Shown in pieces: positions 5,082 to 21,746 of a stretch of DNA of 42,000 bases. Source of the stretch: a virus (lineage: Duplodnaviria > Heunggongvirae > Uroviricota > Caudoviricetes); the IMG/VR virus record IMGVR_UViG_2909262264_000004, one strand, 5' to 3'. Position 1 is the stretch's first letter; every line of letters begins with the position of its first letter. The notes beneath the pieces are model-generated. The model made no database searches, was not told the DNA's origin, and was given only the letters and a program-made list of their open reading frames with translations. Position numbers and translations under genes: made by a program.

Positions 5082-5447
5082 ATGATTCTCGCCAACGACT
5101 TTCTTGAATACCTGCTCAACACAGAGCGTGATCTTGCCGTTCGCGTGCGTGAACGTTATGACATGTACCTGAAATCCCTGCCTGTACCGCAGCTCGCTGA
5201 CGGAAAGATTGTTATTGATGGTCGCTACATGATTGACAGCCACGAGGGAAATTACAGGCTTTACCGCATTGAAGGTGGCACCCCGTCCGTTATTGGCATT
5301 TACCAGCGCCCATCCTCTGCGATCGTCGATGTGATTGCCGACAGCATCCGCATCACACACCACCATGCCGACACAGAAGACACTGTGCTGGAGATTCAGC
5401 GGCTGGCTGCCGTCTGCCGCGACACCCTGAATGGCATGACGAAGTAA
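5082..5447 (+). CDS. Hypothetical protein upstream of A
   Basis: 121-aa ORF ending 6 nt before A start. Confidence 0.45.
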   Translation: MILANDFLEYLLNTERDLAVRVRERYDMYLKSLPVPQLADGKIVIDGRYMIDSHEGNYRLYRIEGGTPSVIGIYQRPSSAIVDVIADSIRITHHHADTEDTVLEIQRLAAVCRDTLNGMTK

Positions 5448-5453
5448 ATCACT

Positions 5454-8276
5454 ATGACGGCAGAGTACATCAGGGACTGGCAACAACCGCGCCACGCAGT
5501 GGGGCGTGAAGGAACGGGGATCCCCGCTCCTGAATCCGCGCTTTCCTCCTGGCTGGATGCCTACCGGGCAGAGAACGAGCGCCGCCAGGAAATGGCTGAT
5601 GCGGCGTTCTCCGCCACGCCGCTGGGCAGCCTGATTAATAAAAGCCTGGATGCACAGGAAAAACAGGACAAAACCATCACACTGGCAGGAGACGCCAGAA
5701 AACAGGCACGCGGCGCGGTGGATGAAGCCATGGCCTCGCTGCGCCTGCTGCCGTCCTATCTGCGCGATCCGCTTATTCGCCACCTCTCCTTCCTGCGCAA
5801 AAAACAGGAAGCCGATCGCCGGAAAGGCAAAAAGAGCTGGCAGGCGGAACGCTACGCGTGCGGAACCCTGCGCAAAATATTCGAACGTCTGGACCGCACC
5901 GACCACCGCTGGCTGACACCGGGTTATCGCTCCCTTGCCGGACGCGAACGCCTGGATGATTTGCTTTACCTGCCGCAGCTCAACAAACACCAGATACAGA
6001 CGCTGGCCACCATGACGGCGGCGATGTTCAGCAGCACCTTCGAAAAACTCTGCGATGGCTTTGGCGCGACTGATGGCGAGCTGACCATGGATGTAACGCT
6101 GAAGGCGTATCAGATGCTGGCCCGCATGGCGTTACACCTGCACGCTATGCCTCCACATTATGACGCTCTGACAACAGACAAAGACCGGAGGAATGAACCG
6201 GACACGGAGCTGCTGCCGGGCGCAATCCTTCGCCTGACCTGTGCGGAATGGTGGAAACGCAAACTGTGGCTGGTACGTTGCGAGTGGAGAGAAGAACAAC
6301 TCCGCGCCGCCTGTCTGGTTTCCAGAAAAACATCGCCATATCTGAGCCAGGACGCGTTAAGCGAGTTTCGCGCACAGCGCGAGAAAACACGCGATTTCCT
6401 GAAAAGTTTCATGCTGGAAAACGAAGACGGGTTCACGATTGATCTCGAGACAGTGTATTACGCGGGAGTAAGTAACCCGGTTCACCGTAAGGCAGAAATG
6501 ATGGCCACCATGAAGGGACTGGAACTTCTGGCCGAAGCCCGTGGCGACAGAGCGGTGTTTCTGACTGTCACCTGCCCGTCAAAATACCACGCAACAACGG
6601 AGAACGGTCATCCGAACCCCAAATGGAACGGGGCCACCATGCGCGACTCCAGCGATTACCTGGTTAACACGTTTTTTGCGGCGGTCCGCAAAAAACTGAA
6701 CCGCGACGGCCTGCGCTGGTATGGCATCCGCACGGTGGAGCCTCACCATGACGGCACCGTGCACTGGCATATGATGGTCTTTGCTCATCCGGAAGAAATC
6801 GACAGCATCGTGACCATCACCCGCGATATTGCCATTCAGGAAGACCGCCACGAGCTGGGCAATGATATTACTCCGCGCTTTAAGGTGGAGTACGTCGACG
6901 GCTCAAAAGGCACACCAACCAGCTATATCGCGACCTACATCGGAAAAAACCTGGACAGCCGCGCCGTGGATGGCATCGACCCGAAAACGGGCAAACCACG
7001 CGTTGACCACGAAACCGGAAAATCAATGGCCGAGAGCGTGGAGCGCGCCATCGGTTGGGCACGCCTTCACCGGGTCCGCCAGTTCCAGTTCTTTGGCATC
7101 CCCTCCCGTCAGGTGTGGCGTGAACTCCGCCGCCTTGCCAGCCAGATGGCACGCAACCCGGAAGGCCCGCAACGGCTGAAGGATGACGCAATGGATGCGG
7201 TACTCGCTGCCGCTGATGCCGGATGTTTTGCCACCTACATTGAGAAACAGGGCGGCGTACTTGTTCCACGCAAAGACTACCTGATTCGCACCGCCTACGA
7301 CCTCGCAGATGAGCTGAACGATTACGGCGAACAGAGCGTACAGATTTACGGGATCTGGTCACCACTCATCGGGGAATCCTCCCGTGTGTGCACGCATCCG
7401 GATAACTGGAAGCTGGTAAGACGCAAACCGGAAGCGGAAGACAGCGCCCGCGAAAATGCTTTTGACCTTCAGGGCGGCCCTGCCGCCCCTTGGACTCGTG
7501 GCAATAACTGTCCCCGTGTACAGGAAACGGACAACAACGGGACAGAACAGCCGGAAGAACGGCCAGCACCGTGGCCGCAGCTCCCTGACGGCGTTGAAGT
7601 GAACGAATGGATGCGCTCACTGAAACGGCACGAACGCCGGGCGCTGATGCGTTCGCTTCGTGACAAACAGGCAAAAAACAGCAGCGATGAAATGCAGAGC
7701 TGGACACAGAGCCGCAAACAGCAGCGGCCTTTGCCTGATAACCACGAATTACTCGCTAAAGAATGGCGGGAGTCTGCTGAATCTCTCGGCTTGCATATCG
7801 GTGAACAACAGATGCAGCACCTGTTACGGGGCGGCAGTCTGTACGTTGACGGCAGCATCATTGCACCGCAGGGATTTGAAATTGTACGCAAACCGGATAC
7901 CCGCCCGGACAGCCGAATCACGCAGCTCTGGCAGCGCCTGAGCCGTAATCACGGCGTAAGCAGCATGGAGATCCGCCATAACCCGGTCTCCAGCTATCTG
8001 GCACAGCTCGGGGCATCAGACCCCGAAGCCGCCGCACGCCTGGCATCCACACTTCAGCAGGTCCAGAACACCATGAAAACACCCGTTACCGTGCTTTCTG
8101 ACATGCTGCGCGCCATCCGCGACGCAGAGCACGCACAGAGAATCAGTGAAACCACTGAACGCGCCCGCCGCAAAGCAGACCTGCTGCGGGGTGGCCTGAC
8201 CAGTGGAAACAAAAAACAGACAGAAACGGGATTCACAAATCCTGTAAATGAGCAAAAAACGCGCCGCGATATATGA
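5454..8276 (+). CDS. A: Replication initiation endonuclease (P2 gpA / 186 RepA family)
   Basis: 940 aa; HWHMMVF histidine motif and YVDGSKGTPTSYIATYIGKNLD tyrosine pair typical of rolling-circle initiators of P2-like phages. Confidence 0.9.
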   Translation: MTAEYIRDWQQPRHAVGREGTGIPAPESALSSWLDAYRAENERRQEMADAAFSATPLGSLINKSLDAQEKQDKTITLAGDARKQARGAVDEAMASLRLLPSYLRDPLIRHLSFLRKKQEADRRKGKKSWQAERYACGTLRKIFERLDRTDHRWLTPGYRSLAGRERLDDLLYLPQLNKHQIQTLATMTAAMFSSTFEKLCDGFGATDGELTMDVTLKAYQMLARMALHLHAMPPHYDALTTDKDRRNEPDTELLPGAILRLTCAEWWKRKLWLVRCEWREEQLRAACLVSRKTSPYLSQDALSEFRAQREKTRDFLKSFMLENEDGFTIDLETVYYAGVSNPVHRKAEMMATMKGLELLAEARGDRAVFLTVTCPSKYHATTENGHPNPKWNGATMRDSSDYLVNTFFAAVRKKLNRDGLRWYGIRTVEPHHDGTVHWHMMVFAHPEEIDSIVTITRDIAIQEDRHELGNDITPRFKVEYVDGSKGTPTSYIATYIGKNLDSRAVDGIDPKTGKPRVDHETGKSMAESVERAIGWARLHRVRQFQFFGIPSRQVWRELRRLASQMARNPEGPQRLKDDAMDAVLAAADAGCFATYIEKQGGVLVPRKDYLIRTAYDLADELNDYGEQSVQIYGIWSPLIGESSRVCTHPDNWKLVRRKPEAEDSARENAFDLQGGPAAPWTRGNNCPRVQETDNNGTEQPEERPAPWPQLPDGVEVNEWMRSLKRHERRALMRSLRDKQAKNSSDEMQSWTQSRKQQRPLPDNHELLAKEWRESAESLGLHIGEQQMQHLLRGGSLYVDGSIIAPQGFEIVRKPDTRPDSRITQLWQRLSRNHGVSSMEIRHNPVSSYLAQLGASDPEAAARLASTLQQVQNTMKTPVTVLSDMLRAIRDAEHAQRISETTERARRKADLLRGGLTSGNKKQTETGFTNPVNEQKTRRDI

Positions 8277-8352
8277 AGCGCGCATAAAACAGGCAAAAAC
8301 GGGATTTCAGAATCCCGTAAACGATTAATTAATCAACATAAGGAAAAGCGAC

Positions 8353-9312
8353 ATGAAAATTTGTATCGATGACGGCTCCACCAACATCAAGCTGGCATGG
8401 ACTGAGAACGGCGAACGCCGCAACGCCATCAGCCCAAACAGCTTCAAGTCGGAATGGTCTGCGCCGTTCGGTGGCACGCAGCCCGCGAACTACATGCTTG
8501 ATGGCGTGCGCTATGGTTTTGATCCGGTCAGCGATCGCTTTGTCCAGACGACCGACACGCAATACCAGTACAGCGATGTGAATGTCATTGCCATTCATCA
8601 CGCGCTGGTCAAATCAGGCATCACGCCACAGGAGGTGGATGTGGTTGTCACCCTGCCACTGAGCGAGTATTTCGACACAAACGCACAGCCGGACATGGCC
8701 AACATCAACCGCAAAAAAGCGAACGTCATGCGCCCGGTGGAGTACCAGAACGGCGAGGCATTCACTATCCGTAACGTGCGGGTTATGCCTGAATCTATTC
8801 CGGCTGGCTTTAAAGCACTGGCTGGCATGAGTCCGTTTGAATCCCTGCTGATTGTGGATTTGGGCGGAACCACGCTGGATGTGGCAAAGGTTCAGGGGCA
8901 ACTGGCAGGTATCAGCCAGGTGTTTTGCGATCCACACGTAGGCGTTTCTCTGATGGCCGATGCCGTGCTGTCGGTGATGGCCACCAACGGTATGCGCACC
9001 AGTCACCACATCGCCAGTACCATTATCGAACATCGCCACGATGAAGCCTGGCTGCGCCAGCACATCCACAATGACGCGCATTACGCCAGCCTGATGGCAG
9101 TTATTCGTGAAAAGGAGGAAACACTGAAACAACGCGTGATCCGCGCGCTGGCGGGTTTTTCGGGTTACGGGCGGGTGATGGTTGTCGGTGGAGGAGCGGA
9201 GATTGTGGCACCCGCTATCCGCGAAGCCTGCGGAGTTAATGCGACTTTCATCGCGGACGGGGTGCCACAGTTTGCTCTGGTTAATGGGCTGTACGCAATG
9301 AACAAGGAGTAA
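8353..9312 (+). CDS. parM: Actin-like segregation ATPase (ParM/StbA family)
   Basis: 319 aa; IDDGSTNIKL, ISPNSFK, YSDVNV, VMPESIPAG, IDLGGTTLD, VVGGGAE, LVNGLY blocks match plasmid R1 ParM as recalled. RBS aaggaaaag. Confidence 0.85.
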   Translation: MKICIDDGSTNIKLAWTENGERRNAISPNSFKSEWSAPFGGTQPANYMLDGVRYGFDPVSDRFVQTTDTQYQYSDVNVIAIHHALVKSGITPQEVDVVVTLPLSEYFDTNAQPDMANINRKKANVMRPVEYQNGEAFTIRNVRVMPESIPAGFKALAGMSPFESLLIVDLGGTTLDVAKVQGQLAGISQVFCDPHVGVSLMADAVLSVMATNGMRTSHHIASTIIEHRHDEAWLRQHIHNDAHYASLMAVIREKEETLKQRVIRALAGFSGYGRVMVVGGGAEIVAPAIREACGVNATFIADGVPQFALVNGLYAMNKE

Positions 9313-9316
9313 ACCA

Positions 9317-9628
9317 ATGACGACACCAACCAGACGGATAAGTTTCTATCTGAAGCCCGCCGCCATCAAGAACGAAGGAGAAGCATGCGCCTGGCTGGAC
9401 AGCCTTACACCAGAAGCCCGCAAAAGCGGCCAACGCGTGGCTTTTCTGGCCGGGCTGGCACTTCTGAAGACGAATCCGGCAGAGGCTTACCGACTGGCCG
9501 CATGGGCTGATGATGAGATGTTACCTGTGACACAAATCAGCTCAAAAAAGTTTGAAGCACAGTCTGCACCAGTGGCTAAAATAACCAGCCAGATGGCTGG
9601 GAATATCCGGGCGTTATTTCCTGAGTAA
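9317..9628 (+). CDS. parR: ParR/StbB-like adaptor
   Basis: 103-aa ORF 4 nt downstream of parM with aaggag RBS; size and position as for ParR. Sequence similarity itself is weak. Confidence 0.6.
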   Translation: MTTPTRRISFYLKPAAIKNEGEACAWLDSLTPEARKSGQRVAFLAGLALLKTNPAEAYRLAAWADDEMLPVTQISSKKFEAQSAPVAKITSQMAGNIRALFPE

Positions 9629-9756
9629 AAGCATCTGCGCGAAAAATGCTCACGTTTATAGAAACAGTATCATTCCATTTGGCACACTTACTTCAATAAT
9701 CGATCTGTTAAACAAATAGATTGTCTATTATCTATCGATTAAAACGATCAATTATC

Positions 9757-9784
9757 TTGACAGTAATGTGCCTTTTTGTAAGAT
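9757..9784 (+). promoter_or_regulatory. Candidate sigma70 promoter with flanking operator-like inverted repeat
   Basis: ttgaca at 9757-9762, 16-nt spacer, taagat at 9779-9784. Imperfect inverted repeat ttatcttgaca (9752-9762) / gacaagataa (9801-9810) brackets it. Confidence 0.3.
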
Positions 9785-9992
9785 CGTTCGCATTGTGAGC
9801 GACAAGATAATTGCGCGGCATTGTCCATGCAAAACGCCCCAATAGCAGCAACTATTGGGGCGTAAAACTCGGTCGGACTCACTTAACCTGATATGCGTGC
9901 CTTCCGAAGTAAATCAAAATGTGCGTCGTATATTTTATTGCTTACACGCACCTCTGTAAAGGCACGCATATTTTTCCTATGAGGTAAATAAA

Positions 9993-10262
9993 GTGCGGGC
10001 TAAAACAGGTATTTGCAAGAACCCTCATCGTTATAACCCAACATTTCTGTCTCTCCCTGAATATCAAGGACAAGAAGGTCGGCACAAATGCGCTGCCTGT
10101 GCTTTTGAGCTAGGCATAAAAGATGCGCTTGAAGGACGCGCTATGGCTCAGAATGATTTAGTTTTAGCTAACATTCCGTTTAGCCAGGCTGGAACTGTAA
10201 GGCACAGAGATGCCTATGAAGCATATGTTCGTGGTTGGCGATTAATACACAGCAACAATTGA
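9993..10262 (+). CDS. Small Cys/His-containing protein of unknown function
   Basis: 89 aa, GTG start with gagg RBS; C-x3-H ... H-K-C-A-A-C arrangement. Last gene before the cos-like region. Confidence 0.45.
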   Translation: MRAKTGICKNPHRYNPTFLSLPEYQGQEGRHKCAACAFELGIKDALEGRAMAQNDLVLANIPFSQAGTVRHRDAYEAYVRGWRLIHSNN

Positions 10263-10272
10263 TACTTTTGAA

Positions 10273-10295
10273 GCGCCGATAAGGCGCTTTTTTTG
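10273..10295 (+). terminator. Intrinsic terminator
   Basis: gcgcc-gataa-ggcgc hairpin followed by TTTTTTT immediately after the 9993-10262 ORF. Confidence 0.6.
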
Positions 10296-10559
10296 TTTGC
10301 ACGATAGTGCACAAGTTTGCACAATTTTTTTGAACGACTTTTTGTACTTCCGGCCCGCGTGGTGGCTGGATCCGTCAAGGATCCGTACGTGCACAAAAAA
10401 ACGCGTTTTTTCTACGCGCAGGTGACGGGGGAACAGCCCGCGTTTCAGGGGGTAAATAGCATTCCCTGAGCGATGTCGCAGCGACACAACAGAATGGCCA
10501 TATTTCTCACGCTGAGCGTGAAAAAGATGTGAGGGCTTTTGATTTGATGGGGTGAAAGG

Positions 10560-10600
10560 TAAGGCCGTCAAAATCGCACTGAGGCGGCGAAGAACATGCA
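10560..10600. other. Candidate cos (cohesive-end) region
   Basis: gaggcggcgaagaaca lies about 160 bp from the portal gene end and resembles P2/186 cos (GGCG.GGCGGGGAAAGCA) as recalled. A second similar string is at about 10423-10437. Weak. Confidence 0.2.
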
Positions 10601-10749
10601 GTCAACGCGGTGGGATTGCGTAAGAGCCTGACCGTCGATGATGGCAAAAAGCTGGAAGGCGTCGTGAAATTATCTGACTGATACAGGAGCTGGAGAGCCG
10701 GGGCATAAATTTTTTATGCCCCGGCGAAGCAGCAGACAAGCGAAGCGCG

Positions 10750-11796
10750 TCAGGATGTGGGCTGGGTGTCCAGCAGTGCATAAGGGTTAAAGCGGATCAC
10801 CTCTTCGCCAAGCCAGTCATTGATGTGCTTCATGGCCTCCATGACGGGCATCAGCTCGTTAATTGCGTAAACCCGCGCGGCCTTCTCCACATCACCAAAC
10901 GCACTTTTTTCACCCGGCATCGCCCCCATCAGTTGCGGCGGGACACGGTGCGCAGCCAGCACATCATCACGGGATGCCGCCTTAACATTCATGAACTCAT
11001 CCTTTGCGGTGATCTGCTGGAACGGCAAAATTTGCACCCCCTCTTTGCCCCCGTTGGGCGCATGAATGAGCACGTTTTTAAACGCACCACCACCACGTGC
11101 ACCCTGTAACGTTTCTTTCAGGGAGTCCATGCTTTCGCGGTTTACCTGCGCTGCACCGATGTAGATGATGCACCCGGCGTGGGATCCGTTGTCGTAATAC
11201 AGTTTTCTGAACATGTCCGCCGAATGAGACAGGCTGGCCGAGAGTAATGCGCCGAGATATTCCGGCATGCCGTAGATTTCCTGGTTAATATCCGGATTCA
11301 TCAGGTGGCACACTTTGCCAGGGCGAAACTGGAACGCGTCCTTGCCATCCTGCACATACCACCATGATTCAAGATCGCTTCCGCGTCGCATGTATTTCGC
11401 CAGGGCGTGCCGTAATTTAAGCGGTTCACCGAGCATATTGCTTCGAAGCTCAAGGAATGCGTTACCGAACACAAACCAGTCCAGCGCCAGCGCCGAGAAA
11501 TCCTGCCGGGAAAGCAGCGGGTGCGGGATGTAGCAACCGAGTAATACATTGCGCTTAAAGTAAAGCGCAGACTGATGCCAGGACGTTTGCCGGGCCGCTC
11601 TTGCCAGACCGTACCAGTCCACCGGGGTTTCATACCACCGCCCGTTATCAGCACAGTACATATTGTCCAGCAGGTCATGCCCGGTCAGGCGATAAGGACC
11701 ATCAAATGTGAATGCACTGAGCGATGATTCTTTCCTGAGCGCATCAGCGAGATCAATGCGTGAACTCATGCGCACTTTTTTATTTTTTCTGCTCAT
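10750..11796 (-). CDS. Q: Portal protein (P2 gpQ family)
   Basis: 348 aa, close to P2 Q length; start overlaps the stop of the upstream P reading frame (ATGA), as in P2. Confidence 0.9.
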   Translation of the reverse strand: MSRKNKKVRMSSRIDLADALRKESSLSAFTFDGPYRLTGHDLLDNMYCADNGRWYETPVDWYGLARAARQTSWHQSALYFKRNVLLGCYIPHPLLSRQDFSALALDWFVFGNAFLELRSNMLGEPLKLRHALAKYMRRGSDLESWWYVQDGKDAFQFRPGKVCHLMNPDINQEIYGMPEYLGALLSASLSHSADMFRKLYYDNGSHAGCIIYIGAAQVNRESMDSLKETLQGARGGGAFKNVLIHAPNGGKEGVQILPFQQITAKDEFMNVKAASRDDVLAAHRVPPQLMGAMPGEKSAFGDVEKAARVYAINELMPVMEAMKHINDWLGEEVIRFNPYALLDTQPTS

Positions 11797-12415
11797 CAGA
11801 ACTCCATAACCGTGAAACGCTCGTTTTCTCCTTCGCCGCCAATTGGTTCGTTAATGACAGCAAGCATGGTCGCCCACGCAAGGTCGCCGTGGCTGATCCC
11901 CCTCGCGCGGTCCGTTTCGTAAGTGATAAAGCCGCCCGGTGTTTTCACCTTACGCACGGCGTTAAAGGCCGCGACCAGTTCGCGTTCGGCGCGATCGTAT
12001 TCCCACCGCCCGGCACGCATTATTTGCAGCATTTTCAGTACCAGCGACCGTTTTGATGACAGCGTGAAGGTGTACGGAATAGCAGCAGGGAAAAACCGTT
12101 TCACTATCTGATAAACAGCCTCCCCGTTCCCGCCCGTCACATCAATACCGATGTGTTCCACGTTGTAGCGACACGTGAACTCTTCAATGACTCTGGCCTG
12201 TTCTTCAAACTCCAGCCCCTGAACGCGTCGCGTCTCCACCGTTCGAAAACGGCCACCAGGAACAGCCGGAGGAACCACCACGGACACAGCGCCGCTGTCG
12301 CCGTTGCCACTGCTGCCGTTTGCGTCATACCCAATCCATACCGGACGATTTCCCATCGGGCGGGGAGCAAAAGGTTTCCAGTCTTTCCAGTCGTCGTATC
12401 CGTCAACGCCGCAGC
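11684..12415. repeat. 732-bp direct repeat, copy 1
   Basis: Identical to 15055-15786 over the stretches compared by eye. Covers the Q 5' end and the P 3' end. Confidence 0.9.
11796..12415 (-). pseudogene. Terminase large subunit fragment (C-terminal ~210 aa only)
   Basis: Identical to the C-terminus of the intact terminase at 15167-16918; the 5' part is replaced by the IS21-family element at 12416. Confidence 0.8.
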
Positions 12416-12617
12416 TGCAAAATGGCATCTAAATCGATCACGGTTTGGCATTCGAATCGATCATGATTTGGCATCCATCTCCGATCACAGTTTGGCATCA
12501 CAATCGATCACGATTTGGCATGCTTCCGATCATTGATTGGCATCCTGCCAGTCACTCCGGGAATTAACTCTTTTCACCACAGTCTTCATTGCCGTGTTTA
12601 AACCAGTGGAGACGGCA

Positions 12618-14183
12618 ATGTCCAGAAAGAGAAAATCCAGGAGCACTATGGAAACCTGTTTTAAGATCCTTCAGCTCAAGTTCGACCAGAAGCTGACTAA
12701 CCGTTGTATCGGACTGACGTTACACATCAGCGCCTCAACCGTTTTTGAGGTTCTTGCACGCTTCAAAGCCTCTTCTCTGTCATGGCCATTACCTGCTGAT
12801 ATATCCCATGACACGCTGGAGAAACTCATTTACCCGCCCAAAGACACCTCTGCGTCAGAGCTTGTTATGCCTGACATGCTGTACTTCGATACGGAAATGA
12901 GAAAACCGGGCGTGACGCGCCAGCTGTTGTGGATGGAATACAAGGCACAGGCGAGTGACAAAGCGATGGGATACTCGCACTTCTGCCGTTGCTACCGGGA
13001 GTGGAAAAAAACGCGACGCCTCTCCATGCGCCAGGAGCATCGTGCCGGCGAAAAGCTCTTTATCGACTTCTGCGGTCCTACGGTTCCTGTTATTAATCCG
13101 GACACCGGAGAGATACGCCGCGTGGCAATCTTCGTGGCCGTGATGGGGGCATCCAACTATACCTACGTTGAAGCGTGCGAAGGTCAGGACATGATGTCAT
13201 GGTTAAATGCCCACAGCCGTTGCCTGACCTTCCTGGGCGGCGTGCCGAAGCTGCTCATCCCCGATAATCTCAAAAGTGCAGTCAAAAAAGCCGATCGCTA
13301 TGAGCCTGTCATCAACGACAGTTATCAGGCGCTGGCTGAGCACTATGGCACGGTTATTATCCCGGCCCGCCCGCGCAAACCTAAAGATAAACCAAAAGCA
13401 GAAAACGGCGTCCTCATCGTCGAACGATGGCTTCTTGCCCGCATCCGTAATGAAACCTTCCACACGCTCAGGGCGCTGAATGCGCGCCTTCGGGAGTTAC
13501 TGACGGACATGAATAACCGGCCAATGAAGGGGTACGGCAATCAAACCCGTGCAGAACGCTTCCGCATGCTGGATGCGCCAGCACTCTCTCCGCTGCCTCT
13601 GGCACCTTATGAATACACGGAATACAAAGCCGTGAAGGTTGGCCCTGACTATCACGTTGAATATGCCCGTCACTGGTACTCCGTTCCACACGAACTGGTC
13701 GGTCAGCGTCTGTCACTGAAGGCGGGGCAGTCTGTGGTACAACTCTGGCACAAGGGGCAGTGTGTGGCGCAACATCCGCGCAGCACACATGAATATAAAC
13801 ACACAACCAATCCGCTTCACATGCCAGAGCGCCACCGGCAGCACGGGACATGGACACCGGAACGCCTGATCGAGCAGGGGAAACGTACGGGCCCGTCCAC
13901 AGGCCGGGTGGTTGAATCCATGCTGAAGGCAAAACCCCATCCGGAACTGGCTTATCGTGCAGTTCTGGGGCTGCTGGCACTTCAGAAAAAATACGGCCCG
14001 GAACGACTGGAAAAGGCCTGTTACGTTGCCCTGCACTATAACGCCCCTGACAGACGCTTTATCGACAATCTGCTGCGTCACCATCGGGAGAACCTGGAGC
14101 TTCCATTATCCCGCCAGGGCGAACAACATCCGACATATGCTTCAGAGCATGAAAACCTGCGTGGTCCGGGCTACTACCACTGA
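12618..14183 (+). CDS. istA: IS21-family transposase IstA
   Basis: ATG at 12618 with ggaga RBS; N-terminal HTH, central DDE region; upstream of and overlapping istB as in IS21-family elements. Confidence 0.85.
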   Translation: MSRKRKSRSTMETCFKILQLKFDQKLTNRCIGLTLHISASTVFEVLARFKASSLSWPLPADISHDTLEKLIYPPKDTSASELVMPDMLYFDTEMRKPGVTRQLLWMEYKAQASDKAMGYSHFCRCYREWKKTRRLSMRQEHRAGEKLFIDFCGPTVPVINPDTGEIRRVAIFVAVMGASNYTYVEACEGQDMMSWLNAHSRCLTFLGGVPKLLIPDNLKSAVKKADRYEPVINDSYQALAEHYGTVIIPARPRKPKDKPKAENGVLIVERWLLARIRNETFHTLRALNARLRELLTDMNNRPMKGYGNQTRAERFRMLDAPALSPLPLAPYEYTEYKAVKVGPDYHVEYARHWYSVPHELVGQRLSLKAGQSVVQLWHKGQCVAQHPRSTHEYKHTTNPLHMPERHRQHGTWTPERLIEQGKRTGPSTGRVVESMLKAKPHPELAYRAVLGLLALQKKYGPERLEKACYVALHYNAPDRRFIDNLLRHHRENLELPLSRQGEQHPTYASEHENLRGPGYYH

Positions 14184-14199
14184 CAGAAGGAACAACAGT

Positions 14200-14955
14200 A
14201 TGAGTGATAACCTGTTAAACAAACTGACCCAACTGAAACTCCCGGCGATGGCCGGGAGCCTGATACGGCAGCGGGAAACGCCTCAGACCTACGACGAACT
14301 GTCGTTCGAGGAAAGGCTGACGCTGCTGGTTGATGACGAGCTTCTGAGCAGGGAAAACAGCCGTGTGGCACGGTTGAGAAAAAATGCCGGCCTGAAATAC
14401 CAGGCAACACCGGAAGGGCTGCGCTATCCGGCCTCAAGAGGTCTGCGGGCTGAACAGATGAGAGAACTGCTGAACGGTCACTACATAACCCACAGGAAAA
14501 ACCTGCTGATAACCGGTCCGACAGGATGTGGCAAGAGCTGGATAGCCAATGCGCTGGGCGAACAGGCATGTCGACAGAAACACAGCGTCCGGTACTGTAG
14601 AACCGGGCGATTACTGGAACAGCTGGCTCAGGGACGTGTTGATGGCAGCTGGCTGAAATATCTGAAACAGTTGCAAAAAATACAGGTTCTAATCCTGGAC
14701 GATCTGGGGCTGGAACAGTTAAGTAACGCCCAGTGTAATGACCTTCTGGAGCTCATAGAGGATCGTTACGGACAAAGCAGCACGATAGTGGTAAGCCAGT
14801 TCCCGGTAGATAAATGGCATGGTCTGATGGAAAACCCAACAACAGCAGATGCCATCCTGGACAGACTGGTACATAACTCACACAGAGTGGTCCTTCAGGG
14901 AGAGTCCCTGAGGAAAAATCCCCCGACAGTGGAAAGCAGCGAAAAAACGAGTTAA
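14200..14955 (+). CDS. istB: IS21-family ATP-binding helper IstB
   Basis: 251 aa; Walker A GPTGCGKS and Walker B LILDDLG. Confidence 0.85.
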   Translation: MSDNLLNKLTQLKLPAMAGSLIRQRETPQTYDELSFEERLTLLVDDELLSRENSRVARLRKNAGLKYQATPEGLRYPASRGLRAEQMRELLNGHYITHRKNLLITGPTGCGKSWIANALGEQACRQKHSVRYCRTGRLLEQLAQGRVDGSWLKYLKQLQKIQVLILDDLGLEQLSNAQCNDLLELIEDRYGQSSTIVVSQFPVDKWHGLMENPTTADAILDRLVHNSHRVVLQGESLRKNPPTVESSEKTS

Positions 14956-15054
14956 AAAGCGATAGAAAAAGTTAAGTTCCCGGTTGATCGAATGTATGCG
15001 AATCGCTGATCGGACTTCGATGCCAATCCGTGATCGAATAGAGCGGAATACGCA

Positions 15055-15167
15055 GTCAGGCGATAAGGACCATCAAATGTGAATGCACTGAGCGATGATT
15101 CTTTCCTGAGCGCATCAGCGAGATCAATGCGTGAACTCATGCGCACTTTTTTATTTTTTCTGCTCAT
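15055..15167 (-). pseudogene. Portal gene 5' fragment (first 38 codons)
   Basis: Same N-terminus as the portal (MSRKNKKVRMSSRIDLADALRKESSLSAFTFDGPYRLT), then reads into IS-derived sequence (ORF 14952-15167). Confidence 0.7.
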
Positions 15168-15786
15168 CAGAACTCCATAACCGTGAAACGCTCGTTTTCT
15201 CCTTCGCCGCCAATTGGTTCGTTAATGACAGCAAGCATGGTCGCCCACGCAAGGTCGCCGTGGCTGATCCCCCTCGCGCGGTCCGTTTCGTAAGTGATAA
15301 AGCCGCCCGGTGTTTTCACCTTACGCACGGCGTTAAAGGCCGCGACCAGTTCGCGTTCGGCGCGATCGTATTCCCACCGCCCGGCACGCATTATTTGCAG
15401 CATTTTCAGTACCAGCGACCGTTTTGATGACAGCGTGAAGGTGTACGGAATAGCAGCAGGGAAAAACCGTTTCACTATCTGATAAACAGCCTCCCCGTTC
15501 CCGCCCGTCACATCAATACCGATGTGTTCCACGTTGTAGCGACACGTGAACTCTTCAATGACTCTGGCCTGTTCTTCAAACTCCAGCCCCTGAACGCGTC
15601 GCGTCTCCACCGTTCGAAAACGGCCACCAGGAACAGCCGGAGGAACCACCACGGACACAGCGCCGCTGTCGCCGTTGCCACTGCTGCCGTTTGCGTCATA
15701 CCCAATCCATACCGGACGATTTCCCATCGGGCGGGGAGCAAAAGGTTTCCAGTCTTTCCAGTCGTCGTATCCGTCAACGCCGCAGC
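15055..15786. repeat. 732-bp direct repeat, copy 2
   Basis: Duplicate of 11684-12415 immediately right of the IS. Confidence 0.9.
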
Positions 15787-16918
15787 CAATCAGGATATTC
15801 AGGTTAAATGCCGATTCCCCTTCGCGGACAAACTCACACATGTAGAGATTGAGGAACTCGTCTTCGGTGTTTTCATCGCGGATTTCGTCAATATCGGTGT
15901 GTTTCCAGCCGTGATTAACCACATCTTCCAGCGTGACAATCTGCCGCCATGTCCGGTCAGGGCAGATAAGTCCGTTATGCAGCGTTTTCCAGTCCACAGA
16001 AAAACGCTGGCGTTTATGCGTGGCCTTTTTCTCGTTCCAGCGGTCGCCGTTCCAGTAGGCGTATGCCTCGTGCGTTTCGGTGGATGGCGTGGAGAAGTAG
16101 GTGCGCCGCAGTCCGCTGAGGGTTGCCATAGCGCCAGCCACCTTGCGCAGTTCAGCAAAGCGACTGACCCAGAAAAATTCATCAAAATAAAAATTGCCCG
16201 TATAGGACTGTGCCGACGCAGCAGAAGTGCCGAGAAAATGCAGCTCTGCGCCGTTGGAGAGGATGATTTTATCGCCCCCTTTCAGCTCCACATCAACTTC
16301 AGCCGCGGCCTTCTGAATAATGCTTTTAAACTGGAACGCCTGACGACGCGACGCAGACAAAAAAATCTGGTTACGCTGGTAAGGTTGCGCCACATCGTCA
16401 CGCAGCGCCATCAGCAGCGCTTCCTGTGCAAAATACCAGGTCGCCCCAATCTGTCGGGATTTCAGGATCATCCTGTTACGTATCCCGGCTTCCCTGCAAA
16501 GGGTCAGGGAGTCAAACCAGCCCCGCTGATGCCACTCCAGCCTGCTGATGATTTTTTCCCGCAGTGCGGCAATCTGTTCCGGCGTGAAATGATTTTTGAG
16601 TTTTTTCGTCCGGCCTTTCTTTCCTGTGACCGTCGCATCCGGCTGGCCATCATGCAGTTTTTTAAGCTGCCGGGTCAGCAGGTCTATTTCCTTAAAGTCA
16701 CCGCCTGTTTTATTCTGTTTTTCAGTAAGCTGGATGAGGCGCGCATCGATGGACTGCGTGACACGCTGCACGGGTGGCGTTTCATCCCACTGGTCGCGTT
16801 TTTTCCACGCATAAATCGTGTTCGGGTTTATTCCCATCAGACGTGATATTTCTGCGGGCGGATAACCCTGCCAGTAAAGTTGCCGCGCACGCTGGCGCAC
16901 AAAAGCGTCCTGAATCAT
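15167..16918 (-). CDS. P: Terminase large (ATPase) subunit (P2 gpP family)
   Basis: 583 aa, close to P2 P length; intact; divergent from the O-N-M-L operon. Confidence 0.9.
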   Translation of the reverse strand: MIQDAFVRQRARQLYWQGYPPAEISRLMGINPNTIYAWKKRDQWDETPPVQRVTQSIDARLIQLTEKQNKTGGDFKEIDLLTRQLKKLHDGQPDATVTGKKGRTKKLKNHFTPEQIAALREKIISRLEWHQRGWFDSLTLCREAGIRNRMILKSRQIGATWYFAQEALLMALRDDVAQPYQRNQIFLSASRRQAFQFKSIIQKAAAEVDVELKGGDKIILSNGAELHFLGTSAASAQSYTGNFYFDEFFWVSRFAELRKVAGAMATLSGLRRTYFSTPSTETHEAYAYWNGDRWNEKKATHKRQRFSVDWKTLHNGLICPDRTWRQIVTLEDVVNHGWKHTDIDEIRDENTEDEFLNLYMCEFVREGESAFNLNILIGCGVDGYDDWKDWKPFAPRPMGNRPVWIGYDANGSSGNGDSGAVSVVVPPAVPGGRFRTVETRRVQGLEFEEQARVIEEFTCRYNVEHIGIDVTGGNGEAVYQIVKRFFPAAIPYTFTLSSKRSLVLKMLQIMRAGRWEYDRAERELVAAFNAVRKVKTPGGFITYETDRARGISHGDLAWATMLAVINEPIGGEGENERFTVMEF

Positions 16919-17072
16919 TGCTCCCCCTGAGTAATTACAGGAAGATTACCCGCGCGCGAAACCGTTCTCCTTAACCCCCTGTTCTGGCCGTTTTCTTACA
17001 ACAAAAGCCCTTTGTATCAGCCTGTTACGCTTTGCCATCATGACTGAAGAACCAGTCAGAGGGGCAAAAACT

Positions 17073-17909
17073 ATGGCTAATGAAAAAAAGACATCCCGCA
17101 AAAAGTTTCGCGTGGCTGTCTCCGGATCAACTGTTGATGGCCGTGAAATCAGTCCGGTGCATCTGCGTGAAGCCGCCGAGAACTTCAACCCGGATGTTTA
17201 CGCTGCCCGCGTGAACGTTGAGCACTATCTCTCGCCATGCCCGTCAAGCGAATTTTCCGCAATGGGCGATGTCATTGCACTGAGTACGGAAGACATTACG
17301 GAAGGTCCGCTGGCCGGACGTACTGCGCTGTATGCAGAAATCGAACCGACCGAGCGCATGAAGCAGCTTGTCGCGGACGGCAAGAAAATCTATTCCAGTA
17401 TCGAACTGCACCCGCAGTTCTCCGTTAACGGGCGCGCCTATCTGGTCGGGCTGGCGATGACCGACACCCCGGCAAGCCTGGGCACTGAGCGCCTGAAATT
17501 CACGGCACAGCAACGTCAGGCGGTAATGACGTTCAACAGTGTCCAGGGTGAAGCGCCGCTTATCTCCGAAGCCATCGAGTCTGAAATCATCGAAATGGCA
17601 GAACAACGCCAGGAAGAAGGCACCCAGTGGTTTAACCGCGTAATGGGGATTATTGGCCGTGGCCGCAAAGCGGATGACGCCAGTTTCTCCCGTATTCAGG
17701 AAGCGGTGGAAGGCGTCGCAACGTCACAGGCCGACATTATCGACCGTTTTAATGTGCTGGAAACCCGCCATCAGCAGGACCGCCAGAAAATCACGTCACT
17801 GACCACAGAGCTGGCAGCACTGAAGGAAAAACTGCGCACGCATGACGGCGATCCGCAGAACCGCTTCACCGCAACGGGCGCAGCCTCCGACCAGCTGGCT
17901 GACTTCTGA
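17073..17909 (+). CDS. O: Capsid scaffolding protein (P2 gpO family)
   Basis: ATG at 17073 with gagggg RBS; N-terminus MANEKKTSRKKFRVAVSGSTVDGREIS resembles P2 O. Confidence 0.85.
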   Translation: MANEKKTSRKKFRVAVSGSTVDGREISPVHLREAAENFNPDVYAARVNVEHYLSPCPSSEFSAMGDVIALSTEDITEGPLAGRTALYAEIEPTERMKQLVADGKKIYSSIELHPQFSVNGRAYLVGLAMTDTPASLGTERLKFTAQQRQAVMTFNSVQGEAPLISEAIESEIIEMAEQRQEEGTQWFNRVMGIIGRGRKADDASFSRIQEAVEGVATSQADIIDRFNVLETRHQQDRQKITSLTTELAALKEKLRTHDGDPQNRFTATGAASDQLADF

Positions 17910-17932
17910 TAAGACAAAGGAGCAAATTTTTT

Positions 17933-18985
17933 ATGAATCTGGTGATGTCAGATATTACCCGCAACAAGCTGGGTTGCTATATGGCGCAGCAGGCGTCGCT
18001 TAACAATATCCCGGTATCTGCACTGGTATCGCGATTTACCGTGGAACCCGCGGTGCAGCAGCGTTTTGAAAACGCCTCAAAGGAAAGTACCGAATTTACG
18101 AAAAGAATTAACGTGATCGGCGTGACCGACCAGAAAGGCGAAAAAATCCTCCTGGATACCACAGGACCGATTGCGCGCACGAATACCAGTTATGACGGAA
18201 CAAAACGCCGTAACCCGAATAACGTGGTTGATCTGAAAAACCGCAAATACCAGTGCGAACAGGTGAACTACGACACGTTTATTTCGTATCCGCAGCTTGA
18301 TGCCTGGTCGGCACACCCTGATTTTCAGTCCCGCATCAGCGCACAGATTGCCCGACAGGTGGCGCTTGACCGCATCATGATCGGTTTCAACGGCACGTCT
18401 CACGCGGATGAGTCCAACTTCAGCACCAACAAGCTGCTTCAGGACGTTAACGTGGGCTGGCTGGAGCACATCAGAACCGACGCCAGCGAACGCGTTATGA
18501 ATGACGTGACGCTGACCTCCCGCAACATGGACAACACCGTGGCGCACGCGGGTAAGTATGCGAACGCTGATGCACTGGTACAGGACGCGCGTTCATCCCT
18601 GCTGGATGAATGGCACAAGGAAGCTGACGACCTCGTGGTGATTATGGGGCGCAACCTGTTTAACTCGCTGCGTCTGCCCGTGCTGAACAGCATCAGCGGC
18701 CAGAATCCCAATGCGGAATTACTCGCCGGGCAGCTCATCCTGTCATCGCGCACCATTGGCGGGCTGGGCGTGTTCCTTGCGCCGTTCTTCCCGGATGCAA
18801 CGATGCTTATCACCTCGTTCAACAACCTGTCGATTTACTGGCAGAAAGGTTCAATGCGTCGCCTGATGAAAGACGAGCCGGAATACAACCGCATCGCCAC
18901 CTACCAGTCCATCAATGACGCTTATGTCGTTGAAGACTATGGCAAGTGCGCGATGGTCACTGGCCTGAAGTTCGCCGACAGCTAA
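17933..18985 (+). CDS. N: Major capsid protein (P2 gpN family)
   Basis: 350 aa; aaggag RBS; FTVEP..., MIGFNGT and VEDYG blocks as in P2 N. Confidence 0.9.
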   Translation: MNLVMSDITRNKLGCYMAQQASLNNIPVSALVSRFTVEPAVQQRFENASKESTEFTKRINVIGVTDQKGEKILLDTTGPIARTNTSYDGTKRRNPNNVVDLKNRKYQCEQVNYDTFISYPQLDAWSAHPDFQSRISAQIARQVALDRIMIGFNGTSHADESNFSTNKLLQDVNVGWLEHIRTDASERVMNDVTLTSRNMDNTVAHAGKYANADALVQDARSSLLDEWHKEADDLVVIMGRNLFNSLRLPVLNSISGQNPNAELLAGQLILSSRTIGGLGVFLAPFFPDATMLITSFNNLSIYWQKGSMRRLMKDEPEYNRIATYQSINDAYVVEDYGKCAMVTGLKFADS

Positions 18986-19030
18986 TCAACTCACGGCGGG
19001 CATCATGCCCGCCTGTAACGGAGAGAAAAA

Positions 19031-19831
19031 ATGATTACTCCTGCACAACAACACTGGCAGAACGTGATGGCACAGCGCGCAGGCCGGGCGAATGAAGGCG
19101 TGGACCACGCCGCGCGTACCGCGCATGAAGAGGTGCTGTATCGTCTGCGTCTGGCACAGGCCCGGCTTAAGGGCGTACAGGCCAGAAGCGCGAAAGCCGC
19201 CATCAAAAAAGAGTTGTTGCCGGATTTTTCCGGCTGGATTGAGGGAACGCTGGAGGCTGACGGCGGGCAGCAGGATGAAGTGATTGCCACGCTGATGGTG
19301 TGGGCGATTGACTGCGGCGATCTTCCGCTTGCGTTGCGTATTGGTGCGTATGTGGTCCGTCATAACCTCATTATGCCGGATAACTTTGGCCGTACTGCTG
19401 CCACGGTACTGACCGAAGAAATCTGCAACCCGGTACTGACGCAGGCCGGGACGGATGCTGACGCGGATTTGTCCGCCTTTATCGAACCACTGGACACCCT
19501 CCGGGAGATTGTCACAGACCAGGACATGCCGGACGAAGTGCGCGCCAAATTATGCAAGGCGTGCGCCTTTGCCCGTCGTGGTCTGACCGATGCAGACAAC
19601 ATGGCCTTATCACTGAAGCTGCTGCGCGAAGCGATGCACCTGAACCCGAACGCAGGTGTGAAACGCGAGATTGCAACCCTTTCCCGCGCCCTGAAAAAAG
19701 CCGATTCCGCAGCCGCACCAGAAGACGCCAGCACACCGCAGGCGCAGGACGAAAGCAGCAAAAGTAAAAAGACAACGCGGAAGCCTGCAACACGAAAAAC
19801 CACCGCGACGCAGAAGGCGAAGCGCGGTTAA
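19031..19831 (+). CDS. M: Terminase small/endonuclease subunit (P2 gpM family)
   Basis: 266 aa; DMPDEVRAKL and AGVKREI blocks; basic Lys/Arg-rich C-terminus as in P2 M. Confidence 0.85.
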   Translation: MITPAQQHWQNVMAQRAGRANEGVDHAARTAHEEVLYRLRLAQARLKGVQARSAKAAIKKELLPDFSGWIEGTLEADGGQQDEVIATLMVWAIDCGDLPLALRIGAYVVRHNLIMPDNFGRTAATVLTEEICNPVLTQAGTDADADLSAFIEPLDTLREIVTDQDMPDEVRAKLCKACAFARRGLTDADNMALSLKLLREAMHLNPNAGVKREIATLSRALKKADSAAAPEDASTPQAQDESSKSKKTTRKPATRKTTATQKAKRG

Positions 19832-19932
19832 CGACTGACCCCGTCAGCGGGCGGCGTGCGCGGTGTTCCGGTTTGACTCCGTGACCGTTTACACCGCGCA
19901 CCCACCGCCCGATTTTTTCAGGAGTGAACCCC

Positions 19933-20427
19933 ATGAGTATGGTTGCCAGAACCAACCCCGGCCCCGCAGAGGACGACATCACCGATACCGATGATGGTGA
20001 TACCCGTATTTCAGCGGGTGCATTCTGGCCGGATATTGTGCTGCGTGAGCTGCGTCTGGCGATACGACTGCCGGGCCGTGTGACCACCTCCCGCCTGCTG
20101 CATACCGCCACCGGGGCCGTGGCACACGTTACCCGCGAGCTGGAAGCATGGCAGCAGGAACAGCAGGCGGCTGGCCATCAGACGCTGGCCGATGTTCCTG
20201 CACCCGTAATTAACGGAGAAAGCGTCAATCTCTGGCACTGGCGCAATGCTGTTTATACCGCCACACGCGCCCTGATTCTGGAGCGTTATCGTGATGCAGA
20301 CACAACGGACAAGGGCGACCGCCGGGCGGACGCTCTGGATATACAGACATCGGATTTGTGGCGTGATGTGAGCTGGGCCATCTCTGACATTCTGTGCCGC
20401 CCGCGAATCTTTGCGGAGCTGTGCTGA
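19933..20427 (+). CDS. L: Head completion protein (P2 gpL family)
   Basis: ATG at 19933 after aggag; FWPDI, LADVPA and LWRDVSWAI blocks resemble P2 L. Confidence 0.8.
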   Translation: MSMVARTNPGPAEDDITDTDDGDTRISAGAFWPDIVLRELRLAIRLPGRVTTSRLLHTATGAVAHVTRELEAWQQEQQAAGHQTLADVPAPVINGESVNLWHWRNAVYTATRALILERYRDADTTDKGDRRADALDIQTSDLWRDVSWAISDILCRPRIFAELC

Positions 20428-20627
20428 TGAAAGTGAAGGCACTGGAAGGCGACACCGTGGATTCGCTCTGTTTCCGGTACTACGGCACGACGCAGGGTGT
20501 CACCGAAAAGGTGCTGGATGCCAACCCCGGACTCTGTCAGCAGGTATTTCTGGACGCCGGGCAGGAAGTGGAGATGCCGGAGCCGGAGAAGAAGAAACGA
20601 GAAATGATTCAGTTGTGGGGGGAGTAG
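20427..20627 (+). CDS. X: Tail protein X (P2 gpX family)
   Basis: 66 aa; MKVKALEGDTVDSLCFRYYG...ANPGL resembles P2 X. Confidence 0.7.
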   Translation: MKVKALEGDTVDSLCFRYYGTTQGVTEKVLDANPGLCQQVFLDAGQEVEMPEPEKKKREMIQLWGE

Positions 20628-20629
20628 CA

Positions 20630-20953
20630 GTGAGCACCATTCAAACAGGGATCACAGAGCAGGTTATTGCGTGGCTCTTTGATCACCTGCCAACGGTGTA
20701 TGCAGTAGGCGCGGCGGTCAGCATTTCCGCGCTGATGAGTCTTTATGACGGACGAACACTGGTTCAGACCGTAACGGGATCGCTGGCGTGCGGCATTCTT
20801 GCCATGGCCGTGGCCGGGTCGTTGCGCTTCTTCGGGTTTCCTGAAGATGCCGTGACGTTTATCGGCGCATCAATCGGTTTTATGGGGGCAGAGAAAGCAC
20901 GCGACAAGGTTATTGCGGCCTTTAATCGCAGGGTGAAGGAGAAGGACGAATGA
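20630..20953 (+). CDS. Holin-like membrane protein
   Basis: GTG start; three hydrophobic segments and charged C-terminus, directly upstream of the endolysin. Confidence 0.55.
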   Translation: MSTIQTGITEQVIAWLFDHLPTVYAVGAAVSISALMSLYDGRTLVQTVTGSLACGILAMAVAGSLRFFGFPEDAVTFIGASIGFMGAEKARDKVIAAFNRRVKEKDE

Positions 20954-21342
20954 GCAACACATTTAAATTCAGCAGCCGGAGCGAAAAGAATTTGCAGGGC
21001 GTAAATCCTGATCTGGTGAAAGTGACCCGACGGGCACTGGAAATCTCGGAAGTGGATTTTGGTATCACCGAAGGGGTGCGCAGCCGTTACCGCCAGAAGC
21101 AACTGGTGGCCACGGGTAAGAGCCAGACCATGAACAGCCGCCACCTTACGGGGCATGCCGTGGATGTTGTGGCTTATATCGGCAGCCAGGTGTCATGGGA
21201 ATGGCCGCTGTACGAAAAAATCGCAGCAGCATTCAGACAGGCCAGCCGGGAACTGAATATTCCGGTGGAATGGGGCGGCGACTGGAAGACCCTGAAAGAC
21301 GGACCGCATTTTCAGTTACCACACGGAGCCTATCCGGCATGA
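20950..21342 (+). CDS. Endolysin, peptidase M15-type
   Basis: 130 aa; SRHLTGHAVDV His/Asp metal-site motif; sits between holin and spanins. Confidence 0.7.
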   Translation: MSNTFKFSSRSEKNLQGVNPDLVKVTRRALEISEVDFGITEGVRSRYRQKQLVATGKSQTMNSRHLTGHAVDVVAYIGSQVSWEWPLYEKIAAAFRQASRELNIPVEWGGDWKTLKDGPHFQLPHGAYPA

Positions 21343-21746
21343 AGCTCTGGCCCACGCTTGGCGTCGCTTTCCTTCTGATTGCCGGATGGGGAACATCCAT
21401 GCGTCTGTCGTGGTCGCTGGGCCGGGAGAACGCCAGAAACGAAGCGCAGGCCAGCACCCTGAAAAGTACCGCCGACACCCTGAATATCATCAGCGCCGGG
21501 GTACAGGATATGCAGCAGGTGCTGGCGCAACTCCGCGTGGAAAATCAGCAACGCAATCAGGACGGAGAGGTAAGACGTGAACAGCTACGCAACGATATTG
21601 CAAAAGATGAATGCGCCCACGCTTTGCCTGACGCTCGTTTTACTGACAGGTTGCGCAGGCACGCAGAACGCGCCACGGCCAGCGCCGTCAGTCCGGCTTA
21701 TACCACAGACGCTGACCATACCGGTAATGCCTCCCCCCTTCCCTGA
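21339..21746 (+). CDS. lysB: i-spanin (LysB/Rz-like)
   Basis: N-terminal TM helix then periplasmic coiled-coil-like region; follows the endolysin. Confidence 0.55.
   Translation: MKLWPTLGVAFLLIAGWGTSMRLSWSLGRENARNEAQASTLKSTADTLNIISAGVQDMQQVLAQLRVENQQRNQDGEVRREQLRNDIAKDECAHALPDARFTDRLRRHAERATASAVSPAYTTDADHTGNASPLP

Follow-up and report, generated by a model that had tools for sequence, protein, structure and literature searches.

A 732-bp direct repeat in place of a short target-site duplication flanks an ISSso4-like IS21-family element within the terminase-portal operon of a P2-like Escherichia coli prophage

An ISSso4-like insertion sequence (IS) of the IS21 family sits between the terminase gene P and the portal gene Q of a P2-like (P88/Xuanwuvirus-like) prophage of E. 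coli, and it is flanked by two direct copies of the same 732 bp of phage DNA. In formal terms, this is a 732-bp duplication of the target site where one of 5-6 bp is usual. Both P and Q remain whole despite the IS. In a base-by-base comparison at an offset of 3371, the two copies were identical at 732 of 732 positions, with mismatches starting at once beyond either edge, and no other long direct repeat was found in the 42-kb window, which is the whole stretch of DNA that was analyzed. Chance cannot explain a perfect match of this length. The coordinates of the features are given in Table 1.

Table 1. Positions of the IS, the repeat copies, and the packaging genes in the window.
Feature	Position	Strand	Remarks
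Portal gene Q, full length, 348 aa	10750..11796	-	PF04860 Phage_portal
732-bp repeat, left copy	11684..12415		0 mismatches vs 15055-15786
P' remnant ORF, 210 aa	11796..12428	-	Terminase_6C (nuclease domain) only
ISSso4-like IS21-family IS, 2,639 bp	12416..15054	+	TG...CA termini; antisense to P-Q operon
Five subterminal 17-nt repeats (CGATCAYRRTTTGGCAT), spacing 22-24 bp	12435..12543	+	Presumed IstA binding sites, left end
istA transposase, 511 aa, intact	12648..14183	+	rve and Mu-transpos_C_2 domains; no internal stop
istB AAA+ helper ATPase, 251 aa, intact	14200..14955	+	PF01695 IstB_IS21, E = 2e-60; no internal stop
Q' stub ORF, 71 aa	14952..15167	-	Q residues 1-37 and 34 residues from IS right end
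Subterminal repeat, right-end copy	15020..15036	-	One clear copy
732-bp repeat, right copy	15055..15786		0 mismatches vs 11684-12415
Terminase large subunit gene P, full length, 583 aa	15167..16918	-	Terminase_5, Terminase_6N, Terminase_6C
Divergent P/O intergenic region	16919..17039		Position only; presumed late promoter driving P then Q

The prophage was assigned to the P2-like phages (Peduoviridae) on the basis of adjacent genes for a gpP-type large terminase and a portal, which are divergent from those for the gpO scaffold, the capsid, and the small terminase, and the phages nearest to its packaging operon were Chuche, Shae_phiSM, and Xuanwuvirus P88. On the minus strand, the full terminase gene P is followed by a 37-codon portal stub, the antisense IS, a C-terminal remnant of P, and the full portal gene Q. 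The full-length P is equal in length and 100% identical in nucleotide sequence to the uninterrupted P in reference genomes, and Q is likewise so to the annotated portal gene of L001. The left repeat copy covers 113 nt from the start of Q and 620 nt from the end of P, stop codon included, with a 1-nt overlap. The P' remnant begins with an ATG and four codons supplied by the IS left end and continues with P residues ~379 to 583; past this IS-encoded start, its translation matches the C-terminal ~205 residues of P identically, and the overlap between the remnant's stop and the Q start (TGATG) is retained. A Pfam search with the Q' stub ORF (71 aa) gave no match. The initial annotation, which had described the same 732 bp of P end and Q start on both sides of the IS, with an intact Q preceded by a truncated P remnant on the left and an intact P followed by a Q stub on the right, was thus borne out. 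Its estimate that P and Q are 2.6 kb apart has to be revised, as the distance from the P stop to the Q start is 3,371 bp, comprising the IS and the second repeat copy.

The IS21-family identity that had been proposed for the element was supported by the presence of consecutive intact istA and istB, which in this family encode a DDE transposase (with HTH and beta-barrel parts) and an AAA+ helper, the TG...CA tips, multiple end repeats spaced by ~23 bp, and near-identity to ISSso4 copies. Along its 2,639 bp, a length shared with other ISSso4-like copies, the element was 97.8-99% identical to those that carry the annotation 'IS21-like element ISSso4 family' and 100% identical to L018-L020, which are copies in other assemblies. 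The IS ends coincide base for base with those of 12 other ISSso4-like copies, and the boundaries previously placed at 12416 and 15054 hold. Pfam domains rve and Mu-transpos_C_2 were found in the ORF at 12537-14183, and PF01695 (E = 2e-60) was found in that at 13957-14955. The exact IstA protein is present on 7 other contigs, all of which are short IS-only or plasmid-like ones, and the ISSso4-like IS is a common mobile element. The 17-nt subterminal repeat has 6 matches in the window compared with 0.19 expected by chance, and a degenerate second right-end copy was also recognized by eye ~24 bp further inward. A spacing of 23 bp has been described for the end repeats of IS21 (PMC10122671). The short target-site duplication typical of such elements (4-8 bp in the family and 5-6 bp in ISSso4-like IS) was not found here. 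The sequence leading up to the IS is ...GCCGCAGC and that following it is GTCAGGCG..., and these differ, in agreement with the initial annotation. The element remains a member of the IS21 family despite the 732-bp duplication, because the length of the duplication belongs to the insertion event and not to the element.

Both IS-phage joints lie exactly at the IS tips, where the 732-bp copies adjoin the TG...CA termini, and the polarity read from the sequence is that of a normal target-site duplication (L-dup-IS-dup-R). Since the repeat is exact and the junctions are at the IS termini, both joints look to have been made by the transposase rather than by slippage or illegitimate recombination; their exact position at the tips also led us to reject slippage or template switching as an explanation for the duplication. 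To place this in the context of sibling insertions, a target-site duplication of 5-7 bp was found at 13 of the 15 further complete copies of the ISSso4-like IS, and a long flanking repeat within 1.5-5 kb was found at none of these 15, indicating that long duplications are rare in this family, if they occur at all. The duplication made by IS21 is 5 bp, as set by two staggered cuts (PMC10122671; PMC11208146), and the literature searched held no report of long IS21 duplications, the only precedent being that of IS1549 and IS1634. The 732-bp flanking duplication is a rare one-off oddity, known as a single instance.

The uninterrupted relatives of the prophage provided further evidence on the age of the event. 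The empty-site prophage L029, found in another assembly, has 1 mismatch along the left-hand 12,415 bp and 0 along the right-hand 6,593 bp, and UTME-6 has 0-1 mismatches across ~4.9 kb of the left flank and 2 kb of the right flank. The presence of a near-isogenic empty-site prophage with 1 mismatch in 19 kb over both flanks indicates that the insertion event was recent and private. L029 and UTME-6 are near-identical on both sides, giving no sign that the flanks came from different prophages, and a hybrid of two different prophages was ruled out because both flanks match this one lineage. Among 5,426 complete E. coli genomes, 0 had the allele with the duplicated flanks. An IS at either of the two edges of the repeat, designated site A (in P; the wild-type equivalent of 15786|15787) and site B (in Q; 11683|11684), was found neither in these 5,426 genomes nor in phage records. 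The two 32-nt junction sequences had no match in viral_contigs or metagenome_contigs, and no protein record was found for either chimeric ORF, the one of 71 aa or the one of 210 aa. Scanning genome_contigs with the IS left end yielded nothing and with the IS right end yielded fragments only. Prophages with the exact gpA protein were all uninterrupted, and a query with the 186-aa alternative-start P remnant retrieved relatives only ~98% identical, with P genes frameshifted or cut by other elements, such as IS1 in L042. These lesions are a different event, and their clustering near site A is an artefact of how the query was chosen.

Detection of the structure in this window alone, and in none of the other collections searched, would be in line with an assembly or population artefact, in which the true chromosome would be wild type or carry a simple insertion and the structure would be the product of an assembly graph resolved wrongly, of a mixed culture, or of a 3,371-bp circle (IS and 732 bp) beside a wild-type prophage. 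The IS is also a multi-copy element that collapses in short-read assemblies, resulting in IS-only contigs of 2.6-2.9 kb. However, a simple insertion does not explain why the graph should break a second time at a distance of 732 bp, and both the A|IS-left and the IS-right|B joints are needed in the reads, the assembled path being the simplest to include both joints. Elsewhere, the window is also clean, being free of further long direct repeats and 100% identical to references for kilobases, and the circle is the expected excision product of the real structure anyway. We consider an artefact, which the initial annotation had also named as a possibility, improbable.

For the origin of the duplication, we tentatively prefer a single aberrant transposition, in which the IS ends were joined to target strands 732 bp apart. 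The IstA/IstB transpososome would join the 3' end of the IS right end to the top strand at site B. At site A, the 3' end of the left end would be joined to the bottom strand, and the polarity of the 5' stagger over the 732 bp between the two sites would be the normal one. The two target 3'-OH ends would then prime strand-displacement repair synthesis over the 732 bp, which would result in the duplication. As a possible route, two IstB decamers, which are normally side by side on one S-shaped target, might bind non-contiguous segments of looped or supercoiled DNA. Single-end ('half') integration by IstA/IstB has been seen in vitro, and two separate IstB decamers hold the target (PMC11208146). 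Against a single-event origin, no second assembly with the allele was present in the collections searched, leaving a single instance, and neither the 15 sibling copies nor the IS21 reports in the literature searched included a long duplication.

Well-known reactions only would be required if two ordinary ISSso4 insertions in the same orientation had occurred in co-resident prophage copies, one at site A and the other at site B, followed by IS-IS recombination. The prophage copies could be a tandem double lysogen, sister chromosomes, or replicating or excised phage circles, and recombination across the 2.6-kb IS copies would join the left part through site A to the part from site B onward, with both 5-6 bp duplications absorbed within the 732-bp repeat. 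This predicts the exact sequence observed, with the joints at the IS tips. A donor would be available, because the IS is intact and identical copies are present elsewhere, including on a plasmid-like contig, and several P2-like prophages per genome are common, in up to 5 places. However, two independent insertions would have to fall within 732 bp, in the correct order and orientation, in otherwise identical copies; both flanks match one lineage to 1 mismatch in 19 kb. Moreover, a simple insertion at either site is absent from the complete E. coli genomes, and the target immunity suggested for IS21 (PMC11208146) would disfavour a second cis insertion in a tandem lysogen. This series of events is possible but, in our assessment, unlikely. 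Because the final sequence is the same under both models, the sequence cannot separate two insertions from a single event.

The observed sequence would also be yielded by alternative-end (sister-chromatid) transposition, starting from a replicated simple insertion at site A, in which the left end of one sister and the right end of the other are inserted at site B. One product would be an adjacent deletion (L-IS-R), and the other would be L-dup-IS-dup with a break that is resealed via the 5-6 bp duplication. Analogous models have been proposed for IS10 adjacent deletions and for sister-chromatid transposition of maize Ac. For this route, two broken flanks would have to be rejoined precisely in E. 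coli, a host without efficient end joining, and no supporting IS21 observation was found, making it very improbable.

With respect to the consequences for the prophage, 3.4 kb now separates Q from the upstream P, including an antisense IS that is not translated, so that polarity probably silences Q and the prophage would be unable to make portals. The late promoter for P and then Q presumably lies in the divergent P/O intergenic region, by analogy with P2. A sigma-70-like promoter able to drive Q was not found in 10600-17100, and TGT-N12-ACA sites, which were looked for as an outward promoter that could rescue Q, occurred at chance frequency only. Homologous recombination between the repeats, which would be mainly RecA-dependent, is predicted to remove one repeat and the IS, resulting in exactly the wild-type operon, and such restoration would be precise since the repeats are perfect. 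As the initial annotation had claimed, collapse of the repeat is predicted to give the wild-type P-Q junction, reproducing the empty site of L029 and L001. The insertion can, therefore, reasonably be regarded as a putative 'reversible lesion'. Nothing suggests a selected or regulated switch; neither the recurrent ON/OFF alleles (0 of 5,426 genomes, and none in the other collections) nor the dedicated machinery of a programmed switch (phase variation) was found.

If the structure is real and arose in one step, it would imply that a well-studied two-protein transposition machine can make widely spaced strand transfers in vivo, and it would provide a concrete, testable model for long target duplications. 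More generally, though this is doubtful at present, IstA/IstB may occasionally join the IS ends to sites hundreds of bp apart on a looped target, giving kilobase-scale duplications and an overlooked class of gene-sparing IS variants that revert precisely by homologous recombination. Such wide end joining could also hint at how the long repeats of IS1549 and IS1634 arise, and self-healing structural variants induced by IS would have been overlooked so far. The case is also relevant to IS-mapping software, which assumes short duplications, and to the calling of prophages as 'defective', as a prophage can be disabled by an IS and yet keep every gene intact and possibly revert exactly. The immediate weight of the finding is modest, as it concerns one locus known from assembled sequence.

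Compared with known systems, the locus shares with the P2-type Q-P operon of Peduoviridae the gene order, the divergent O-N-M-L genes, the overlap of the P stop and the Q start, and the domain content, and it differs in being split by the IS and in having an extra C-terminal fragment of P and an extra N-terminal stub of Q. Among elements with long target duplications, IS1549 of Mycobacterium smegmatis and IS1634 of Mycoplasma mycoides are similar in that they insert with flanking direct repeats of up to ~500 bp. These duplications are variable in length, at 8-514 bp, and their mechanism is unknown, none having been proposed in a 2008 review of the IS4 family (PMC2266710). However, those elements are of an unrelated family with a single-protein transposase, whereas the proteins here are IstA and IstB, and no IS1634-family transposase was found; the long repeats are recurrent there, whereas the one described here is an exception, with short duplications in 13 of 15 siblings and recurrent long repeats in 0 of 15. 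The arrangement also resembles IS-mediated tandem duplications and further rearrangements with direct repeats, in which perfect direct repeats flank intervening DNA and which are unstable and collapse precisely by recombination. Classical IS-mediated duplications have the IS at the borders and at the join (IS-X-IS-X-IS), whereas a single IS lies here between the two copies of X, with none outside.

The window carries a P2-like prophage that extends from the integrase gene to ogr/D and adjoins flk in E. coli, and its closest phage records were Chuche, Shae_phiSM, and Xuanwuvirus P88. On its minus strand, the large terminase gene (P) is followed by a Q stub, an ISSso4-like IS21-family insertion sequence (IS), a P remnant, and the portal gene (Q). 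The IS lies between two copies of a 732-bp segment, which matched at 732 of 732 positions when compared base by base with an offset of 3,371 bp, the identity ending sharply at both edges. The initial annotation had described the IS between such direct repeats; its coordinates proved exact, and its interpretation of the structure was supported overall. No second long direct repeat was found within the 42-kb window, the remaining repeats being inverted and in the tail-fibre region. The P stop overlaps the Q start (TGATG) in both copies, and P and Q have the same length and sequence as the uninterrupted genes in several E. coli genomes.

Features of the prophage and of the interrupted P-Q operon (window coordinates)
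Feature	Position	Strand	Description
Integrase	1-1020		
Segregation genes	8353-9628		early region
Q, portal	11796-10750	-	348 aa
Repeat, left copy	11684-12415		
P remnant	12428-11796	-	ATG and four codons from IS, then P from ~residue 379 to 583 (nuclease domain)
IS	12416-15054	antisense to operon	2,639 bp; starts TG, finishes CA
IstA	12648-14183		511 aa, intact; rve and Mu-transposase C-terminal domains
IstB	14200-14955		251 aa, intact; PF01695, E = 2e-60
Q stub	15167-14952	-	Q residues 1-37, then 34 residues read from IS
Repeat, right copy	15055-15786		
P, large terminase	16918-15167	-	583 aa, all three terminase domains
Invertible tail-fibre region	26460-30240		
Tail-fibre inverted repeat	26462-26884 / 29596-29176		94%
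Tail-fibre inverted repeat	27501-27867 / 28546-28180		98%
Tail-fibre inverted repeat	27254-27397 / 28799-28656		100%
Hin/Cin-type recombinase ORF	29633-30238		
ogr/D	~37.1 kb		prophage end
Inverted repeat, 125 bp	37845-37966 / 39312-39188		91%
Island	38000-41000		low GC (0.37)

Judged from the sequence, the empty site is L-seg-R and the window is L-seg-IS-seg-R, an arrangement identical in topology to an ordinary target-site duplication, except that 732 bp is duplicated instead of 5-6 bp. The left IS tip is joined after the final base of the segment and the right tip before its first base. At both novel joints, the IS ends at exactly the same terminal nucleotides as in all its other copies, indicating that the joints were made by transposase strand transfer. 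Slippage and illegitimate recombination, as makers of the joints, were ruled out by this precision. An assembly or population artefact is unlikely, because a simple insertion would give no cause for a second breakpoint 732 bp off and both joints are necessarily present in the sequenced DNA.

The left IS end has five 17-nt repeats at a spacing of 22-24 bp and the right end one clear inverted copy (six matches in the window vs 0.19 expected by chance), resembling the multiple repeats with 23-bp spacing at IS21 ends (PMC10122671). The IS was 97.8-99% identical to copies, both on plasmids and on E. coli chromosomes, that are annotated as "IS21-like element ISSso4 family", and 100% identical to copies from other public assemblies. 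Given the intact istA and istB, the IS21-type ends, and the near-identical copies elsewhere, it is an ordinary, known member of this group and is probably active. A copy in ERZ651783 NODE_1106 (4759-7398), with 0 substitutions and a 1-bp length difference from that in the window, adjoins Rep3 replication and ParA-like partition genes and has a duplication of 6-7 bp (GGTTCAG); a plasmid of this type could be the donor.

P and Q are both whole, and the untranslated antisense IS now precedes Q, placing it 3,371 bp downstream of P. No sigma-70-like promoter was predicted throughout 10600-17100, and Ogr-type half-site patterns occurred at chance frequency only. For these reasons, polarity probably keeps Q silent, and packaging by this prophage is probably abolished. 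Sequence comparison showed that collapse of the perfect repeat gives the empty site exactly, and homologous recombination would therefore restore the wild-type operon. In E. coli, direct repeats of ~700 bp with a few kilobases between them undergo recombination at ~1e-4 to 1e-3 per generation, for the most part in a RecA-dependent manner. The earlier proposal of a reversible lesion appears sound, and nothing indicates a selected switch at the P-Q locus.

Elsewhere in the prophage, the early region encodes a ParM/StbA actin-like segregation protein and a plasmid-stability (ParR-like) protein, also found in relatives, which hint at a plasmid-like maintenance option. The tail-fibre region has nested inverted repeats beside the recombinase ORF, and its segments differ in order and orientation between the window and the reference prophage UTME-6. 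The island between ogr/D and flk, annotated in reference genomes with an RES-family NAD+ phosphorylase, a zinc-ribbon protein, and TagO, has the 125-bp inverted repeat straddling its left edge.

The empty site was found in a near-isogenic prophage at 4548-22823 of JACFKJ010000002.1 (GCA_014327735.1), which has one 732-bp copy without the IS. Aligned with the window, it showed a single mismatch over the 12,415 bp left of the IS and none over the 6,593 bp on the other side; UTME-6 exhibited the same pattern. This prophage is the best available "before" state, and the strain that carries it may be closely related to the source. Such a near-isogenic empty site indicates that the event is recent and private, and the near-identity on both sides that both flanks are of one prophage lineage. 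The IS was found at neither junction in 5,426 complete E. coli genomes or among phage records, and the junction sequences had no match in viral and metagenome collections. Among 15 other complete IS copies inspected, 13 had a target duplication of 5-7 bp and two had none, and flank-to-flank similarity within 1.5-5 kb was found in 0 of the 15. Complete copies on plasmids NZ_CP075655.1 and CP088375.1, with neither target duplication nor flank similarity, probably arose by IS-IS recombination or adjacent rearrangements.

As to the origin, two ordinary insertions in two co-resident prophage copies, at site B (11683|11684, in Q) and site A (the wild-type equivalent of 15786|15787, in P), followed by IS-IS homologous recombination, would result in a sequence identical to the product of a single event. 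This main rival is rather doubtful, as it requires two hits no more than 732 bp apart, correctly ordered and oriented, in copies that are otherwise identical, and no simple-insertion allele was found at either site in the 5,426 genomes. Sister-end synapsis, which requires precise end rejoining, is very improbable. Separately, in prophages ~98% identical, other elements cut P short at points no more than ~50 bp from site A (an IS1 end at 1-141 of comparison sequence L042 and another element end at 1-24 of L038), a clustering that is probably a by-product of contig retrieval.

We tentatively favor one aberrant transposition event: the two ends of the IS would attack opposite strands of the target at points 732 bp from each other, keeping the usual 5' stagger, and the target 3'-OH ends would then prime displacement synthesis over the interval. 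This is plausible because single-end integrations by IstA/IstB have been seen in vitro (PMC11208146), normal holding of the target involves two separate IstB decamers that dimerise around the insertion point (PMC11208146), and IS1549 and IS1634 generate long variable duplications of 8-514 bp, by a mechanism not known (PMC2266710). IstB decamers bound to stretches of a looped target that are not contiguous could give the long stagger. If true, recurrent long-stagger integration by IstA/IstB would raise the weight of this locus, which is now modest, with one instance. Within the IS21 family, a flanking duplication as long as 732 bp is an unusual variant, seen at a single locus in assembled sequence, whereas the 5-bp repeat of family members is set by the spacing of two staggered cuts (PMC10122671; PMC11208146).
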